DNA of 64,000 nt, from positions 57,490 to 121,489 of the forward strand of contig PMXQ01000149.1 in NCBI GenBank assembly GCA_003171065.1, given 5' to 3'. The DNA comes from Chloroflexota bacterium. GTDB taxonomy: Bacteria > Chloroflexota > Limnocylindria > Limnocylindrales > CSP1-4. The translations under genes and the position numbers were made by a program. Below, piece after piece: positions 30,088 to 60,612 of the stretch (positions within the stretch are counted from its first letter, which is position 1; each line of letters opens with the position of its first letter). The notes under the pieces were generated by a model. That model was not told where the DNA came from, did no database searches, and saw only the letters and a list, made by a program, of their open reading frames with translations.

Positions 30088-30108
30088 AGATCAGCTAGGG
30101 GAGCGGCC

Positions 30109-31371
30109 GTGGCGTTCTGGCGCAGAATCTGGGGCCGCGACGAGGTGGCGGCGCTGGCTGCCTGCACGGCGCTGGACGTCGGCACCGAGTTCGCAAAGGC
30201 GCTCGTCTTCGACATCGACGAAGCTGGGCTGGGCACCGTGCGGGGCGTCGGCCGCAAGCGCCAGGGTCTTGCTCACATGCAGTCGGGCACGGTGACCGAC
30301 ATCAACGCGGTCGTTGACAACTGCTCCGTCGCGCTCCAGGAAGCGGAAGAGATGGCCGGCTTCCGGCCCACGCAGTGCGTCATCGGAATTGCCGGGGAGC
30401 TGGTCAAGGGCTTCACCATGACGCGATCCCATGAGCGCAAGCGCCCCGCCGCGCCGATAACGGATATGGAGCTGCAGAAGCTGATCGACGGCGTCCAGCA
30501 CGACGCCCTGCGTGAGGCCGAGCGGGCGATCACCTGGGAGACGGGTCTACCGCAGGTGGACGTGCGGCTGGTTCACGCCGCGGTGACCGGCGCCCAGATC
30601 GATGGCTATCCGGTCACCAACCCGGTCGGCTTCAAGGGCCGCAACGTCAAGATCAGCATCTTCAACGCCTTCGCGCCCCTCGTGCACCTCGGTGCGCTGC
30701 AGAGCGTCGCCGAGCAACTCGACCTGGAGCTGCTGGAGGTCGTGGCCGAGCCGTACGCCGTGGCCCGGGTCCTGGCCAGCGAGCAGGTGCAGCAGTCCGG
30801 GGCGCTTTTCATCGATATCGGCGGCGGCACGACGGACGTTGCCCTCGTCCGTCACGGCGGCATCGAGGGGACGCGTATGTTCGCCCTGGGCGGCCGGGCC
30901 TTCACGAAATCGATCGCGGACCACCTGGATCTGCCCTTTCCGCGTGCAGAAGAGGTCAAGGTCGACTACGCGAAAGGCAGGCCGGTGGAGCACGCTGCCG
31001 AGGTGGCCCAGGTGGTGGCCGACGACGTGGCGATCTGGTCGGCCGGCGTGGAGCTGGTCCTCGAAGAGCTGGCCGAGGGCGACCTGCTGCCGAGCCGGGT
31101 TTACATGTGCGGCGGCGGCTCGCACCTGCCGGAGATCGCTACGGTGTTGCGCAGCGAGGAGTTCTGGAAGCGCCTGCCGTTCAGCCGGCCGCCTGAGATC
31201 TTCGTGATGGCCCCGGGCCAGGTCGAGCGGATAAAGGACGCGACGCATCTTCTGGTCGACCAGCAGGACGTCACCCCCCTCGGTCTCGCCTACCAGGCGA
31301 TCGAACTGCAGACCAACGAGGATCCGCTGGATGTCGCTCTGCGGCGGGTCCTCCGAGCGATGAAGATGTAG
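30109..31371 (+). CDS. FtsA-like actin-fold ATPase (FtsA/PilM family, SHS2 insert, C-terminal amphipathic helix)
   Basis: LDVGTEFAKALVFD, IDGYPVTNPVGFKGRNVKISIFNAFAP, FIDIGGGTTDVALV, VYMCGGGSHLPEI and C-terminal LRRVLRAMKM match FtsA architecture. Not in a cell-division gene-cluster context. Confidence 0.8.
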   Translation: MAFWRRIWGRDEVAALAACTALDVGTEFAKALVFDIDEAGLGTVRGVGRKRQGLAHMQSGTVTDINAVVDNCSVALQEAEEMAGFRPTQCVIGIAGELVKGFTMTRSHERKRPAAPITDMELQKLIDGVQHDALREAERAITWETGLPQVDVRLVHAAVTGAQIDGYPVTNPVGFKGRNVKISIFNAFAPLVHLGALQSVAEQLDLELLEVVAEPYAVARVLASEQVQQSGALFIDIGGGTTDVALVRHGGIEGTRMFALGGRAFTKSIADHLDLPFPRAEEVKVDYAKGRPVEHAAEVAQVVADDVAIWSAGVELVLEELAEGDLLPSRVYMCGGGSHLPEIATVLRSEEFWKRLPFSRPPEIFVMAPGQVERIKDATHLLVDQQDVTPLGLAYQAIELQTNEDPLDVALRRVLRAMKM

Positions 31372-31375
31372 CGCC

Positions 31376-33283
31376 ATGGCGATCTATTACATCGATGTCG
31401 ACGACGAGATCACATCCGCGGCTGCACGAATCCGCGATGCCAGCGAAACGCGCATCGCCCTGGTCATTCAGGGTGGATCACGCCTGGCGACGTCGCGGAT
31501 CAACTTCCGGCTCCTGGCCCGCGAGGCGCGCCATCGCGGACGGCGCCTGGCGATCATCGCCGCCGACGCCACGGTTCGGTCGCTGGCTCAGACGGCCGAC
31601 TTGCCCGTATTCGCCAGCGTTGCCGAGTACCAGAGAGCGGAAGCCGCGCGACCGCCGGGCAGTCAGCCAGGTGGCGCCAACGAGGTAGGGGACACTCTCG
31701 ACGAGCTGGCGGCCACGGTCGGCACCGGAGACTCCGGTCGGGCGGCGAGGCTTGCCGGTGGCGGCGGCCCCAATCGGACGGGCGGCGTTGGGCAGGTTGC
31801 GCCGCACGCGAGACGCCGGTTCGGTCTCGGCGCCTGGCGTTGGGTCGCCCTGGCGCTCGTCGCGGTCCTCCTGGTGGGGGGCCTCGGCGCGTTCCTTCTG
31901 CTGCCGAGCGCGACCGTCGTATTGACGTTGAAGGAGGAGGCAGTCGGCCCACTGAACCTGGCTGTCAAGGTGGATCCCGGTATCAGCGCTCCCAACGACG
32001 TAACCCTCACGGTTCCGGGCGTTGCCGCGGAGTTCGCTCTGCAGGCGAGTGGGACATTCGACGCCACGGGCCAGAACGTGGTCGACACGGCGGCCACGGG
32101 CACCGTCACGTTCACAAGCGCCAACACGGGTGAGGCAGTGAGCATTCCGGCGGGTACTCAGGTCGAAACCGCGGGTGGAGTGGCGTTCGCGACAACTGCC
32201 GCGGTGACTGTCCCCAAGGCCACGCTGATCGGTCTTACGGTCACGCCTTCAACGGCCGACGTGGCCGTCACGGCCGTCAAGAAAGGACCCACCGGGAATG
32301 TCGCCGTCAAAGCGATCGTCAACGTACCGGCCTGGCTGGCGACAGCTCTGGTCGTACAGGATCAGGTGACCAACAAGAAGGCCACTTCGGGCGGCACTCA
32401 CACCGTGACGCCGTTCGTCCAGCAGTCCGACGTCGACGCCGCAGAAGCCAGCCTGGCGGCACAGCTCGCCTCGGCCGCACAGGCCAAGATGGCCGATCCG
32501 TCGTCGGTGGCGGCCGGCATGGAGTTGTTTCCGGCGACGGGCCGCTTGGACGACCCGAGCTTTGCCCCCGACCCGGCCACGCTCCTGAACCAGGGGCTGT
32601 CGAGCTTCGGTCTCGCCGCCACCGCGACGGAGACCGTCACGGCGGCTAATCTCACCAGCGTGCGCAGCCTCGCCCAGCGCGAGATCGTAGCCAGGGTTCA
32701 GGCCGGCCACGCGCTCGTCGATGGCTCGATCGTGATCACGTTTGGGTCGCCGGCGGCTGACGGATCCGTGGTTTCGGTCCCGGTGGTCGCCAGCGCGCTG
32801 CAGACGCCGACGGTGGACGTGAACCAGTTGCGCGCCGCGATCAAGGGCAAGTCCGCGACGCAGGCCAGGGCCTATCTGTCCCAGTACGGCGCCGCGAAGG
32901 TTTCCGTCTGGCCGTTCTGGGTGTCGACGATTTCCGGGTTCGATTTCCGGATCGACGTGAGCCTGATGGCGCCGCCCGCGCCGCCCGCCGTCGCCTCCGT
33001 GACGCCTGCGCCGGTTCCTTTGCCTACGCCAGAGGAGACTTCCACGCCGACCGGGGTCGCGACGCCGACCGAGATCGCGACGCCGACCGAGATCGCGACG
33101 CCGACCGGCGAACCGACGCTCCTACCGTCCGGCGCGCCGTCTCCGAGCCCGACTCCGACGTCGGTGGCATCCGCCTCGACCGGCGAGCCGACGCCCTCCC
33201 CGTCCGGGGCGCCATCGCCGAGCCCGACTCCGACGTCGGTCGCAACCGATTCGGCCGGCGCGAGCCAGACGGTCACGCCGTGA
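31376..33283 (+). CDS. Large bitopic membrane/surface protein: ~95-aa cytoplasmic N-domain, Gly/Pro-rich linker, one transmembrane helix, ~350-aa Thr/Val/Ala-rich beta domain, C-terminal Pro/Thr/Ser tandem repeats
   Basis: Transmembrane helix WRWVALALVAVLLVGGLGAFLLL. Repeats TPTEIATPTEIATPTGEPT, SGAPSPSPTPTSVA x2. Starts 5 nt after the FtsA-like gene. Confidence 0.6.
   Translation: MAIYYIDVDDEITSAAARIRDASETRIALVIQGGSRLATSRINFRLLAREARHRGRRLAIIAADATVRSLAQTADLPVFASVAEYQRAEAARPPGSQPGGANEVGDTLDELAATVGTGDSGRAARLAGGGGPNRTGGVGQVAPHARRRFGLGAWRWVALALVAVLLVGGLGAFLLLPSATVVLTLKEEAVGPLNLAVKVDPGISAPNDVTLTVPGVAAEFALQASGTFDATGQNVVDTAATGTVTFTSANTGEAVSIPAGTQVETAGGVAFATTAAVTVPKATLIGLTVTPSTADVAVTAVKKGPTGNVAVKAIVNVPAWLATALVVQDQVTNKKATSGGTHTVTPFVQQSDVDAAEASLAAQLASAAQAKMADPSSVAAGMELFPATGRLDDPSFAPDPATLLNQGLSSFGLAATATETVTAANLTSVRSLAQREIVARVQAGHALVDGSIVITFGSPAADGSVVSVPVVASALQTPTVDVNQLRAAIKGKSATQARAYLSQYGAAKVSVWPFWVSTISGFDFRIDVSLMAPPAPPAVASVTPAPVPLPTPEETSTPTGVATPTEIATPTEIATPTGEPTLLPSGAPSPSPTPTSVASASTGEPTPSPSGAPSPSPTPTSVATDSAGASQTVTP
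33044..33250 (+). repeat. In-frame tandem coding repeats (18-nt unit gcgacgccgaccgagatc x2-3; ~60-nt unit x2) encoding a Pro/Thr/Ser-rich C-terminal linker
   Basis: Direct DNA repeats visible at 33061-33110 and 33121-33240. Protein repeats TPTEIATPTEIATPTGEPT and SGAPSPSPTPTSVA. Confidence 0.7.
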
Positions 33284-57020: not shown

Positions 57021-57097
57021 CGGGGCGTGGCGCAGCCTGGTAGCGCACCTGAATGGGGTTCAGGAGGCCGAGCGTTCGAATCGCTCCGCCCCGACCA
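57021..57097 (+). tRNA. tRNA-Pro, anticodon GGG, CCA encoded
   Basis: Manual fold: 7-bp acceptor stem CGGGGCG/CGCCCCG, D-arm GCGC-AGCCTGGTA-GCGC, anticodon stem CCTGA/TCAGG with loop AUGGGGU, T-arm GAGCG-TTCGAAT-CGCTC, discriminator A, CCA. Coordinates anchored to the overlapping track ORF 56931..57146. Confidence 0.85.
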
Positions 57098-57114: not shown

Positions 57115-57149
57115 GGCCCTCGGAGACCAGTCCGAGGGCCTTCTGATTC
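57115..57149. terminator. Bidirectional stem-loop terminator between tRNA-Pro (plus) and the flavodoxin-like gene (minus)
   Basis: GGCCCTCGG-agaccagt-CCGAGGGCC (9-bp GC stem) followed by TTCTGATTC. Confidence 0.55.
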
Positions 57150-57230
57150 GGGCGCTGTCCCTTGGCCATCCGTTCCCGCTCCGCGGAGACACGACGGGAG
57201 GCGGGCCGGCCATGACTGCCGACGGGTTCG

Positions 57231-57728
57231 TCACACGTGCGCGTGCGCCAGCTCGGCGCCCCAACGGCGCGCTCGCTCGAGCTCTCCGTCACGAAGCGGC
57301 CCCCACTTGCCCTTCACGACGAAACGCTGGCCCTTCATAAGCGGGCGGTAGCCCGCCTGCTCCAGACCCCGGGCGATCGCCGAGGTCGCCCCGCCTGGGG
57401 ACCATCGCAGGCCTGTCTCGAACGCGGCACAGGCGCCGTGTCCTGGCGGGAGCGCTTCGAGCCACGAGCGCATCGATGGGTGGGACAGGTCTGGCGGTCT
57501 CGGCGCGCCGGCCGGGTTCGACGCGATGCTGTCACGCATGCCGTCGCTCGGGAGCTGGAATCCCAGTACGGGAGCGCCGGCGACGATAAGGTCCACATCG
57601 GCCATCGCCGGCCCCGTGGCCTCCGCGGTGGACAGTGCCCGGACCTCGGGCCCCAGGCCTTCAGCCACGGCGCGGGCAACGGCCGCGGTGTTGCCCCAGA
57701 GGGACTCATAGACCACGACCGCTTTCAT
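57231..57728 (-). CDS. Flavodoxin-like fold protein
   Basis: MKAVVVYESLWGNTAAVARAVAEGLG...DLIVAGAPV is a flavodoxin-type FMN-binding N-terminus. GGAGGTG ribosome-binding site. The upstream part of the track ORF is rejected. Confidence 0.65.
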   Translation of the reverse strand: MKAVVVYESLWGNTAAVARAVAEGLGPEVRALSTAEATGPAMADVDLIVAGAPVLGFQLPSDGMRDSIASNPAGAPRPPDLSHPSMRSWLEALPPGHGACAAFETGLRWSPGGATSAIARGLEQAGYRPLMKGQRFVVKGKWGPLRDGELERARRWGAELAHAHV

Positions 57729-57977
57729 CGGCACCTCCAACTGCTCGGCATCCGAGCCACACGCCTGGCTCCCGCGGGCCGAACATGCCACACGGAGGGT
57801 ACTCGCGGTAGGGCTGGAAGGCCCGCCTGCCCGGGCGCGGCAAGATCCGGCACGGCCGATCGAGTAGGGCGCGACAATCGGCTGCCGGAAGCCGCCTGAA
57901 GTGCCATTGGCTCTGGGGGCCAGAGGGTCCACCATTCAGATAAGCCAATTTCGGCAGTGCATTCATTGAGGTTTCAC

Positions 57978-58121
57978 ATGTTCCTTAGCAAGACTGAAGG
58001 CCAGGGCCTCGCAGAGTACGCCCTGATCCTCGCGCTCATCGCCATCCTGGCAATCACCGCCCTCATCTTCCTCAGTGGCAACATCAACACGATCCTGAGC
58101 ACAATCGGCCACGCTCTGTAG
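57978..58121 (+). CDS. flp: Flp/Fap-family type IVb prepilin (47 aa; not on the ORF track because it is under 60 aa)
   Basis: MFLSKTEGQG/LAEYALILALIAILAITALIFLSG shows the G-x4-EY prepilin cleavage motif plus a hydrophobic helix. GAGG ribosome-binding site 7 nt upstream. Strong stem-loop terminator immediately downstream. Confidence 0.7.
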   Translation: MFLSKTEGQGLAEYALILALIAILAITALIFLSGNINTILSTIGHAL

Positions 58122-58140
58122 CCGCAGCGCAAACGAGTGG

Positions 58141-58177
58141 AACCGGGTCGCGGACGACGCGACCCGGTTCTTGTTTG
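58141..58177 (+). terminator. Rho-independent terminator after the flp pilin gene
   Basis: AACCGGGTCGCG-gacga-CGCGACCCGGTT (12-bp perfect stem) followed by CTTGTTTGTGG. Confidence 0.65.
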
Positions 58178-58391
58178 TGGGCGCTCGTAGGTTCCGCGAT
58201 CCGAGGCACGTAACCGGTCGATCCGGGCCAATCGGGCATCCCAGGGTAAACTCGATCTCGGATGACCGGCCGAACCGGCCGGCCGAACCAACCCTGGACG
58301 AGTGACGATCGTGGATGACTTGACCCGGCGCGGCGCGAAACGCAGGCCCGAAGCGGGGCTGCTGGACGAGCAGCAGCGATCCGGCGTGGGC

Positions 58392-59855
58392 GATATGGCG
58401 CCGGAGGATTTTCGGGCAGCCGCGCACGCGGCCGTCGACATCATGGCCGACTACCTGGTGGGGGTGGGGGACCGGGACGTCATGCCGGCCGTCGAGCCCG
58501 GTTCCCTGCGGCCGCTCTTCCCGGCCGCGCCACCGGAGTCGCCCGAGCCGATCGAGACCATCCTGGCGGACTACCAGCGCCTCATCGAGCCCAACGTCAC
58601 GCACTGGCAGCACCCGCGCTTCCTGGCCTACTTCAGCAGCGCCGCGTCCGGGCCGGGAATCATCGGCGAGATGCTGACGGCGGTTCTCAACTCGAACGTC
58701 ATGTTGTGGCGCACGAGTCCAGTCGGGACCGAGCTGGAAGAAGTCGTGGTCGACTGGTTCCGCCAGGCCCTCGGGCTGCCGGCGACGTTCGACGGCTTGC
58801 TGACCGACACCGCCTCCACGTCGTCCCTCCTGGCCTTGGCCGCGGCCCGTCAGGCCGCCGGGATGGACGCCGCCACGAAGGGCCTGCCCGGCCGCTCGGA
58901 CGTTCCGAAGCTGCGCGTGTACGCCTCGGCAGAGGCTCATTCGTCGATCGAGAAGGCCGCCATGACGCTGGGGCTCGGGCAGGCCGGGCTGACGAAGATC
59001 CCGACGAACGATCGCTTCGAGCTGCGGCTGGACGCCTTGGAGGAGGCGATCGCAGCCGATAGGAAGGTCGGCGTTCGGCCGATCGCCCTGGTCGGGACGA
59101 TCGGCACCACTTCGACCACTTCCATCGATCCGATCCCGGGCATGGCGGAGATCGCCGCTCGCGAAGGCATCTGGCTGCACGTCGATGCGGCTCACGCCGG
59201 CGCGGTGGCGCTGATCCCGGAACGCCGCGTCCAGTTCGCCGGCTGGGAGCGCGCGGATTCGGTGGTCACGAACCCGCACAAGTGGTTCTTCTCGCCCGTG
59301 GACGCGTCGGTTCTGCTGACGACGCGAATGCCGGTTCTGCGCGACGCCTTCAGCCTCGTGCCGGAGTACCTGCGCACCCTGGATCGCGAAGGTCCGATCC
59401 GCGACTACAACGAGTACACGCCAACCCTGGGCCGGCGCTTCCGGGCGCTGAAGCTGTGGATGCTGCTCCGCTACTTCGGCATCGAAGGTCTGCGCCGAAG
59501 GATCTCCTACCACCTGGAGCTGGGCGAGCGGTTCACCAGCTGGATCGACAAGGCGCCCGCCTTCGAACGCCTGGCGCCGGTGCCGTTCTCCACGATCTGC
59601 TTTCGCTATCGGCCCGCCGCACTGATCGGCCGAGAGGACGAGCCTCGGATCGCGGCGGAGCTGGACCGGGTGAACATGGCCCTCATGGACGCGATCAACC
59701 GGACCGGCCAGGTCTTCCTGTCGCACACCCGGCTGCGGGGTCGCTTTGCGATTCGAGTGGCGCTGGCCAATCTTCGGATGGGAGATGCGGACCTCGACAT
59801 GGTCTGGGAGATCATCCGGCGTGAAGCAGCAGCGCTGACCGTATCGGCGGGTTGA
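58392..59855 (+). CDS. Pyridoxal-phosphate-dependent group II decarboxylase (aromatic-L-amino-acid/tyrosine decarboxylase-like)
   Basis: N-terminal M..EDFR...VD, THWQHPRFLAYFSSA, PLP-lysine region NPHKWFFSPVDAS. Start ATG 58392 by homology (track ORF begins with GTG 58302). Confidence 0.85.
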   Translation, partial: DMAPEDFRAAAHAAVDIMADYLVGVGDRDVMPAVEPGSLRPLFPAAPPESPEPIETILADYQRLIEPNVTHWQHPRFLAYFSSAASGPGIIGEMLTAVLNSNVMLWRTSPVGTELEEVVVDWFRQALGLPATFDGLLTDTASTSSLLALAAARQAAGMDAATKGLPGRSDVPKLRVYASAEAHSSIEKAAMTLGLGQAGLTKIPTNDRFELRLDALEEAIAADRKVGVRPIALVGTIGTTSTTSIDPIPGMAEIAAREGIWLHVDAAHAGAVALIPERRVQFAGWERADSVVTNPHKWFFSPVDASVLLTTRMPVLRDAFSLVPEYLRTLDREGPIRDYNEYTPTLGRRFRALKLWMLLRYFGIEGLRRRISYHLELGERFTSWIDKAPAFERLAPVPFSTICFRYRPAALIGREDEPRIAAELDRVNMALMDAINRTGQVFLSHTRLRGRFAIRVALANLRMGDADLDMVWEIIRREAAALTVSAG

Positions 59856-59898
59856 GGCGGGCCAGGGCGCTGCCGCCCCGGAGCGGTACGATTGACGA

Positions 59899-60612
59899 GT
59901 GAATCTCCCATTTGCCCAAGTGCTGGGCACCGTCCTCGTAGTGGTTGCCACGCCATGTGTCGCCGTGGCCGTGGCCGTGCTCCTCTTCCTCAACCCCATC
60001 TGGGTGGGTTTCGATCAGGGTCGAAGCGACGTGGTCCAACTGACCGGCTACACGCCCACGCAGGTCAGCCAGGTTACGGGCAGCATCCTCTCGGATCTCG
60101 TCTTCGGGCCGCCGAACTTCGATGTCACGGTCAACGGGGCACCGGTCCTGGATGTCCACGAACGCAGCCACATGGCGGACGTTCGCGGCGTGCTCATGAG
60201 CCTGGGGCTGGTGGCCCTCATGGCCGCCCTGATCCTGGTGGCAGTGGGACTGGCGAGTCGGGGCAGGTGGTGGTTCTGGTGGGCCGTCCAGGCGGGCGGG
60301 AAGGTGCTCCTGGGCGGCGTTGTGGTGGTCGGCCTGGCCTTCGCGTTGTTCTTCGACCAGGCTTTCGAACTCTTCCATGAGGTCTTCTTCGCGCCCGGTA
60401 CGTATATGTTCGACGTCCGGACGGAGAAGCTCGTCCAGCTGTTTCCGGATCAATTCTGGTCCGAGACCAGCGTTGCCATTGCGGCGGCGGTGCTGGTGCT
60501 GGGGCTGATCGTCGTCTTTGCGGCGGGCCGCATCGCCGGGCGTGCGGCGTCCGCCGACCCGACGTCAGGAGCCGCGTCGCCAGCCTTGACACCGCCGGGC
60601 GGGCCGCAGTGA
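59899..60612 (+). CDS. Integral membrane protein (TIGR01906/DUF1461-like), hypothetical
   Basis: Four or more transmembrane helices with an extracytoplasmic loop. Overlaps the start of the downstream M50 protease gene. Confidence 0.55.
   Translation: MNLPFAQVLGTVLVVVATPCVAVAVAVLLFLNPIWVGFDQGRSDVVQLTGYTPTQVSQVTGSILSDLVFGPPNFDVTVNGAPVLDVHERSHMADVRGVLMSLGLVALMAALILVAVGLASRGRWWFWWAVQAGGKVLLGGVVVVGLAFALFFDQAFELFHEVFFAPGTYMFDVRTEKLVQLFPDQFWSETSVAIAAAVLVLGLIVVFAAGRIAGRAASADPTSGAASPALTPPGGPQ

Follow-up and report, generated by a model that had tools for sequence, protein, structure and literature searches.

A probable second gene for the major Flp pilin, located outside the Tad locus, in an uncultured Limnocylindria bacterium

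Among the housekeeping genes of a 64-kb stretch of Limnocylindria DNA (hereafter the window, meaning the whole stretch that was analysed), the 47-codon gene flp47 encodes a protein whose predicted mature part is exactly the 39 amino acids of the mature pilin encoded by flp46, a gene of the Tad locus found on other contigs of the same population. Collectively, the observations presented here show that flp47 is a real gene for a Flp-type pilin of an uncultured bacterium of the phylum Chloroflexota, for which the elements fen_, palsa_ and WOOD18 in sample and MAG names point to a peat and soil habitat, and allow us to propose with good confidence that it serves this organism as a second, functional gene encoding its major Flp (type IVc/Tad) pilin. 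The names that homologues carry at NCBI assign the lineage to Candidatus Limnocylindrales/Limnocylindria. The first-pass annotation of the window had weighed whether the pilin is an orphan or forms the major subunit of a Tad pilus whose genes lie elsewhere; the full Tad operon and the identical mature pilin support the latter.

The flp47 gene, its product and its surroundings

The gene extends on the plus strand from an ATG at 57978 to a TAG at 58119-58121 and its translation is MFLSKTEGQGLAEYALILALIAILAITALIFLSGNINTILSTIGHAL (Table 1). A 54-aa version starting at GTG 57957 is present in the mechanical ORF list; the 47-aa form is preferred because its start is preceded by a ribosome-binding site and is the one used by public gene callers. 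This site, GAGG, had been pointed out in the first-pass annotation and lies 6 nt ahead of the ATG; the longer motif TTGAGG is kept ahead of the orphan flp gene of L122 and copy B of L034, two related contigs discussed below. The same annotation placed the cleanest intrinsic terminator of the window directly downstream of the gene, and this also proved correct: a GC-rich 14-bp hairpin (58139-58171) followed by a T-run has a folding energy of -43.1 kcal/mol (z = -6.55 against shuffled sequences) and ranks first among the terminator-like hairpins in a scan of the whole 64-kb window. What does not hold is the description of the gene as unannotated, given that gene callers report the exact product on 16 public contigs (L006, discussed below, included) and that one public source names it 'pilus assembly protein Flp/PilA'.

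Table 1. Features of the flp47 locus, in window coordinates
Feature	Position	Strand	Basis or remark
tRNA-Pro(GGG), landmark of the conserved site	57021..57097	+	ARAGORN; Rfam tRNA 60.3 bits
Strain-variable cassette between tRNA-Pro and flp47	57144..57879		Non-homologous in L122 and L034; context, outside the pilin gene
Flavodoxin-like gene, 165 aa	57231-57728	-	Weak flavodoxin matches, Pfam and NCBIfam
Conserved upstream region, presumed promoter and 5' UTR	57880..57977	+	L122 homology resumes at 57880; unrelated to flp46 upstream region
Ribosome-binding site GAGG	57968..57971	+	6 nt ahead of flp47 ATG, read from sequence
flp47, Flp/Tad prepilin gene, 47 codons	57978..58121	+	ORF and translation; stop included in span
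Leader codons 1-8 (MFLSKTEG), orphan-copy-specific	57978..58001	+	Processing motif G-x4-EY; alignment with the mature PilA chain of 8u1k
130-bp block common to flp47 and flp46, 95.4% identical	57999..58128	+	blastn, window against L114
Predicted mature pilin codons, 39 aa, QGLAEY...GHAL	58002..58118	+	Protein equals mature part of Tad-locus flp46
61-nt exact match to Tad-locus copy, probable gene-conversion tract	58065..58125	+	Longest exact match; end portion of the shared block
Intrinsic terminator, 14-bp stem, 5-nt loop, TGTTTGTG tail	58139..58181	+	Orphan-locus-specific

A scan for sigma-70 consensus promoters between 57000 and 59000 yielded no site. A riboswitch or structured leader upstream of flp47 was considered and rejected: the Rfam search of this region returned no family (the tRNA being the sole Rfam match) and the 5' region folds no better than shuffled sequences (z = -0.33, not significant), one apparent compensatory change in a small hairpin being too little for any claim. 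On the minus strand, a 678-codon ORF (57963-59999) runs antisense to flp47 and the decarboxylase gene that follows it; judging by its codon-position GC, which is not gene-like, this ORF is spurious, as is usual for a genome with 69% GC.

The search with the Pfam profile Flp_Fap (PF04964), named in the first-pass annotation as a check, did produce a match, with E=5.4e-6, covering residues 13-47 of the flp47 product and profile positions 12-46 of 46, although the score of 26.5 bits is under the curated gathering cutoff of 32.2 bits. This shortfall need not argue against membership of the family because the product of the cpaB-adjacent flp46 scores 25.4 bits, likewise under the cutoff; it can be read as a property of the short pilins of this clade. 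A search of the NCBIfam models with the same protein gave no match. The product carries the Flp processing motif G|XXXXEY, as defined in PMC10934763, after a short charged leader and ahead of a hydrophobic helix, and residues G8, Q9, G10, L11, E13 and Y14 are invariant in 14 of the 14 sequences of the clade. When the single protein was compared with all PDB sequences, only 8u1k (E=0.0056) and 8u2b (E=0.042) were retrieved, and a profile of the 14 clade sequences likewise retrieved only 8u1k PilA (E=4.2e-6) and 8u2b (E=2.9e-5), with an alignment that runs along the whole length of mature PilA of 8u1k. The entry 8u1k is PilA of Caulobacter crescentus, the major Tad/Flp pilin, and 8u2b is a 'Flp family type IVb pilin'.

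Since E13-Y14 of the flp47 product align with E5-Y6 of the mature 8u1k chain, cleavage of the prepilin is predicted to occur after G8 (MFLSKTEG|QGLAEY), with Q9 as the mature N-terminus. The first-pass annotation had thus recognised a G-x4-EY prepilin site that is indeed present, but had set the cut after G10, whereas both the motif rule and the 8u1k alignment give G8. The AlphaFold2 single-sequence model of the product consists of one helix (residues 5-46, pLDDT 89), as expected for Tad pilins, which have no globular domain and consist, when mature, of a single hydrophobic helix (PMC11067988).

Approximately 50 ORFs of the window, picked by codon-position GC, were scanned with Pfam, and the gene table of a 100%-identical contig was used in addition. 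The window is a run of housekeeping genes that includes priA, def, recG, hisS, aspS, bipA, alaS, mltG and efp as well as xseAB, dxs, recN, xerC/D, scpAB, cmk, ispH and der; after der, the order is tRNA-Pro, flavodoxin-like ORF, flp47, PLP-dependent decarboxylase, Lit, M50 peptidase, moaC and nrdR. The pilin gene is therefore one gene away from tRNA-Pro, as had been stated, the 165-aa flavodoxin-like ORF being the sole gene in between. The absence of Tad machinery in the vicinity, asserted in the first-pass annotation for a shorter span, extends to the entire window: no T2SSE, T2SSF, RcpC, TadE or Peptidase_A24 match was found across the 58 kb upstream and 6 kb downstream of flp47, and a six-frame scan of the window for G-x4-E-[YF] followed by a hydrophobic run detected no Flp- or TadE-like N-terminus besides flp47. 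Two overlapping genes between alaS and mltG (30088-31371 and 31364-33283) encode an actin-fold ATPase (FtsA 6e-14, MreB 3e-10 and, under the cutoff, PilM_2 1.5e-4) and a 639-aa protein with a Baseplate_J-like stretch (7.7e-8). An exact public look-up of the decarboxylase next to flp47 returned no record.

The orphan site and the Tad locus in related genomes

The site occupied by flp47 could be traced on three further contigs, namely L123 (from ERZ19970325), in which the orphan is a one-residue leader variant of flp47; L122 (ERZ25039519 contig_48882), in which the orphan locus is ~93% identical to the window; and L034, a GTDB representative with a decarboxylase 89% identical and DNA ~78% identical to the window. 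All three share the order tRNA-Pro, variable spacer, flp gene with a MFLxKTxG leader and the same terminator hairpin, followed by the decarboxylase, Lit, M50 and moaC genes, and in all three the flp ORF, the ribosome-binding site and the terminator are undamaged and keep their syntenic place, with tRNA-Pro on one side and the PLP decarboxylase gene on the other, the hairpin recurring after the L122 orphan and after both of the copies present in L034. Because both L122, at ~93% identity, and the more distant species represented by L034 have it at the same site, the orphan copy is old and maintained. The mature parts of flp47 and the L122 orphan differ by 9 nucleotide changes and 2 amino acid changes, a mostly synonymous pattern that is indicative of purifying selection.

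Several features of this site differ between the relatives. In L034 (JADGQJ010000024.1, MAG Chersky.2_5), there are two tandem orphan flp genes (1645-1788 and 1952-2095), each with the same terminator hairpin and with mature pilins that differ at 13 residues. The stretch between tRNA-Pro and flp varies (57144-57879 in the window, 4448-5902 in L122 and 106-1527 in L034): the L122 spacer contains a 338-aa ORF without a family match, and the L034 spacer contains a 1.4-kb insert flanked by a 46-nt direct repeat of the 3' part of the tRNA (29-105 and 1482-1527). Such a repeat is the hallmark of an element that has inserted at a tRNA gene; no 46-nt tRNA-type direct repeat was found in the window. 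In L122, der, the PLP decarboxylase gene and Lit are fragmented, with 37 gap openings in 6 kb relative to the window, a pattern that suggests indel errors introduced by long-read assembly and not genuine pseudogenes.

The Tad locus of the population resides on other contigs (L114-L125) and comprises a two-component system, a flp-like gene, flp46, cpaB, REC-cpaE, cpaF, tadB and tadC, its copies being 99-100% identical to one another. The first-pass annotation had recommended a search for tad and cpa loci in the rest of the genome, and a complete flp46-cpaB-cpaE-cpaF-tadB-tadC operon exists in the population. The flp46 protein starts MLLRSKGQGLAEY..., and the gene is located ~210 bp upstream of cpaB-REC::cpaE-cpaF-tadB-tadC on 13-14 contigs; in those related metagenome loci that extend that far, homologues 77-83% identical to flp47 are found at the same distance, ~210 bp, upstream of cpaB. 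The two genes differ in everything that surrounds the mature part. The leader is MLLRSKG in flp46 and MFLSKTEG in flp47, in line with a general distinction between orphan leaders (MFL[SRP]KT[EHQ]G) and cpaB-linked leaders (MLL[RK]SKG); the upstream region, the context of the ribosome-binding site, the leader codons and the terminator hairpin are unrelated; and a HisKA_3/LuxR two-component system precedes flp46, while the neighbours of flp47 are housekeeping genes.

The layout of the Tad locus is fixed (L114 6038-16093; L032; L033; 40 GTDB loci) and reads HisKA_3 kinase, LuxR-type response regulator, HisKA_3 kinase, flp genes, CpaB, CpaE with an N-terminal receiver domain, CpaF, TadB, TadC and DUF192; the genes that adjoin its far end are DUF192, HPF and PMT_2, and the PLP decarboxylase gene is not among them. 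No match to Peptidase_A24, secretin or TadE/Tad_N was detected within 10 kb of the locus, and because no Peptidase_A24 gene is found in this range the gene for the prepilin peptidase would lie at another site. The Tad locus contains a further Flp-like ORF (…QAGQGLVEYGLILILAVIVCVASLLFFGDELSSLLSLIASAV), ~220 bp ahead of flp46 on its upstream side (L114 9259-9429; the same in L115-L120 and L124); it has the G-x4-EY motif, is not matched by Pfam Flp_Fap and is conserved across the clade. This ORF, the start codon of which is ambiguous, could encode a second or minor pilin.

Contigs from ENA ERZ19980084 and JGI 3300038461 match the window at 100% identity over 16 kb, and identity reaches 99.99-100% for contigs from ERZ19982528, JGI 3300033821 and JGI 3300037086; from each of the last three samples the Tad locus was assembled as well. 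In ERZ19970325, the Tad locus is accompanied by the orphan locus in the form of the leader variant L123, and in SRR23247748 both sequences are on the single contig L006. The Tad locus is also present in the NCBI MAG GCA_003142735.1; a scan of JGI metagenomes with the CpaB of L006 yielded no identical protein, the relatives retrieved reaching 89% at most. A related assembly, ERZ25039519, which is mirrored at NCBI and presumably represents a MAG, holds both loci, the orphan on L122 and the Tad locus on L032 (97.6% identical to L114). The metagenome co-occurrence and this one related assembly together constitute strong circumstantial evidence that flp47 and the Tad machine belong to the same genome. 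The divergence of the two ERZ25039519 loci is unequal (about 6% mismatches at the orphan locus versus about 2% at the Tad locus), which is a caveat on the same-organism reading.

We surveyed the best 80 Flp loci among GTDB species representatives, nearly all of them Chloroflexota MAGs; among the matches listed, the closest to the flp47 pilin has 81% identity. In 40 of these best 80 loci, cpaE, cpaF, tadB and tadC adjoin the flp homologue; in 15, no such Tad gene is present within at least 8 kb on either side; and the remaining 25 are on contigs too short to classify. Unlinked flp genes thus account for 15 of the 55 classifiable loci, contrary to the rarity that the first-pass annotation implied, and some genomes contain both a linked and an unlinked flp gene (e.g., L041 and L045 in CAWCQK01). 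Unlinked flp genes are common in the clade, and the arrangement of flp47 is ordinary and already known from other bacteria. The literature search brought up no work on pili of Limnocylindria or on Flp pilins of Chloroflexi.

The shared block, contig L006 and rival explanations

The DNA block common to flp47 and flp46 starts at the codon for the cleavage-site glycine and ends 7 nt after the stop codon. All five differences between the two genes are in the first 66 of 127 positions (chance probability about 0.04). Counting from the Gly codon to the stop, positions 9, 12 and 15 are C, C and A in the window and L122 orphans and T, T and G in nearly all cpaB-linked copies, and thus are synonymous lineage-specific markers in flp47; position 30 is less clean in that it separates the window and L122 orphans from flp46 but most other cpaB-linked copies have the orphan state. 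Orphan A of L034 shows the orphan state at all four positions and orphan B deviates only in having T at position 9. A further seven positions, 67, 75, 78, 82, 84, 105 and 117, are those at which the window orphan agrees with the Tad copy of its own population, Ile and Asn states included, whereas the L122 orphan and most other copies differ. A mosaic of this kind is what recent gene conversion from flp46 to flp47, with a tract of at least 61 nt, would leave, and the pattern points to such an event, with the numbers being small. The genes flp47 and flp46 appear to be kept alike by gene conversion.

One public contig joins the two loci. L006 (logan:SRR23247748_34853) is a 2.4-kb contig from the Logan short-read assembly collection that is 100% identical to window positions 57272-58125 and then continues into cpaB and REC-cpaE, so that the flavodoxin-like gene and flp47 are connected to the cpaB gene of the Tad locus. 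The junction is inside the 61-nt exact repeat, and after the last mismatch in the shared block L006 matches the L114 Tad locus exactly. The exact CpaB of L006 is present on 13 contigs, 12 of which have it preceded by flp46, the flp-like ORF and the HisKA_3/LuxR/HisKA_3 set and followed by REC-cpaE, cpaF, tadB, tadC and DUF192; conversely, cpaB is downstream of flp46 on all 14 contigs with flp46. The reciprocal recombinant, with the 5' end of flp46 joined to the PLP decarboxylase gene, was found on 0 of the 14 flp46 contigs, and L006 is the only discordant contig among the 16 with flp47 (L006 included) and the 14 with flp46. Logan assemblies use 31-mers, which are shorter than the repeat, and L006 is most likely an assembly chimera across these 61 nt.

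Two other readings of L006 were weighed. Should the contig be real, which we regard as very improbable, homologous recombination over the 61-nt identity would occasionally swap what lies downstream of the pilin promoters, by chromosomal inversion or translocation, and would put the whole tad operon under the orphan promoter in a subpopulation, with gene conversion as a by-product; if true, this would amount to a recombination-based switch of pilus expression. Alternatively, L006 might represent the intact state of a locus in which a Tad operon once followed flp47 and was deleted or is strain-variable, so that flp47 would be a stump. The exact identity of L006 to the window up to 58125, followed by cpaB and REC-cpaE, is what this scenario would predict, but the junction falls exactly within the repeat and the sequence beyond it is identical to the separate Tad locus, and the two-component system, not the flank seen in the window, is upstream on 12 of the 13 exact-CpaB contigs and 14 of the 14 flp46 contigs. 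Furthermore, the far end of the Tad locus does not join the PLP decarboxylase gene, the orphan arrangement with its own terminator is kept in L122 and L034, and the contig itself is short and built from short reads with 31-mers, which do not span the repeat. On the strength of the repeat junction and of the flp46-cpaB contigs, this reading was rejected as very improbable.

The view of flp47 as a functional gene also has to be set against the possibility that it is a silent or decaying duplicate, unexpressed or unassembled, that persists only because it is repaired time and again by gene conversion from flp46. The lack of a promoter consensus in the sigma-70 scan and the recently converted appearance of the 3' part of the gene are compatible with this, but the gene has its own ribosome-binding site, start, leader with the cleavage Gly and terminator, all outside the shared block and all kept across lineages with a divergence of 7-22% in the DNA around the site; in addition, L034 retains two intact tandem copies and the changes in the mature part are mostly synonymous, so we consider a silent duplicate unlikely. 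Least credible of all is that the peptide is no pilin but a small hydrophobic membrane peptide of a different sort that only looks like Flp, such as a type I toxin or a fragment resembling a signal peptide. Short hydrophobic helices do match weakly with ease, and both the sub-cutoff Pfam score and a weak Class_IIIsignal match to the flp47 product could be explained in this way; however, the mature sequence is identical to that encoded directly upstream of cpaB, the six residues of the processing region are invariant in the 14 clade sequences, and the PDB matches are to Tad pilins only.

Proposed role and comparison with known systems

Under the preferred reading, that is, a functional second gene for the major pilin, flp47 would be transcribed alone, with initiation in the 98-bp conserved region ahead of it and termination at the strong hairpin of its own. 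The 47-aa prepilin would enter the membrane, where, as the G-x4-EY motif suggests, a TadV/CpaA-type A24 peptidase encoded elsewhere would remove the 8-residue leader after Gly8, and the resulting 39-residue single-helix pilin would be polymerised by CpaF-TadB-TadC together with CpaB and CpaE. This assembly machine is encoded in the flp46-headed operon that is present in the population and, we infer, in the exact genome from which the window derives. Because both genes give the same mature protein, flp47 can only add to the supply of pilin or place it under different regulation, and its role would be that of an extra or differently regulated source.

Limnocylindria are an abundant but uncultured lineage of soil and peat, and their Tad system appears to be dispersed, the peptidase gene and a spare gene for the pilin being located at other sites than the operon. 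Small pilin genes get lost through length filters, and a pilin without machinery nearby need not be mysterious. Two genes that encode an identical mature pilin behind separate promoters would make a simple, testable case of a dosage or regulatory back-up whose uniformity is maintained by gene conversion. A practical warning can be drawn as well, since the 61-nt exact repeat has probably already yielded a misleading contig in a public collection.

Transfer between dispersed pilin genes is familiar from the type IVa pili of Neisseria, in which silent promoterless pilS cassettes diversify the expressed gene pilE. The present case is similar in that the transfer between dispersed copies would be non-reciprocal, but differs in that flp47 and flp46 both look complete and that the transfer would make the copies alike, not different. 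With PilA of Caulobacter crescentus (8u1k), flp47 shares the short prepilin, the G-x4-EY motif and the single-helix mature subunit; the mature pilin is 39 residues long compared with 45 in Caulobacter PilA, and the flp47 leader has only 8 residues. Unlike the Caulobacter gene, flp47 is located outside the pilus operon, its host belongs to the Chloroflexota, and there is no secretin gene in the 10 kb around the Tad locus.

Close parallels come from alphaproteobacteria, where smc02446 of S. meliloti is an orphan flp gene outside the tad/cpa/ctp cluster and where ctpA and pilA of A. fabrum C58 have been reported to be functionally interchangeable (PMC10934763). Like smc02446 and the A. fabrum pair, flp47 combines a position outside the cluster with paralogy to the cluster pilin. 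The alphaproteobacterial paralogues, however, are ~60% identical to the cluster pilin, whereas the mature proteins of flp47 and flp46 are 100% identical, and flp47, in a different phylum, is further distinguished by a 130-bp block of DNA shared with its paralogue and by the signs of gene conversion within it.
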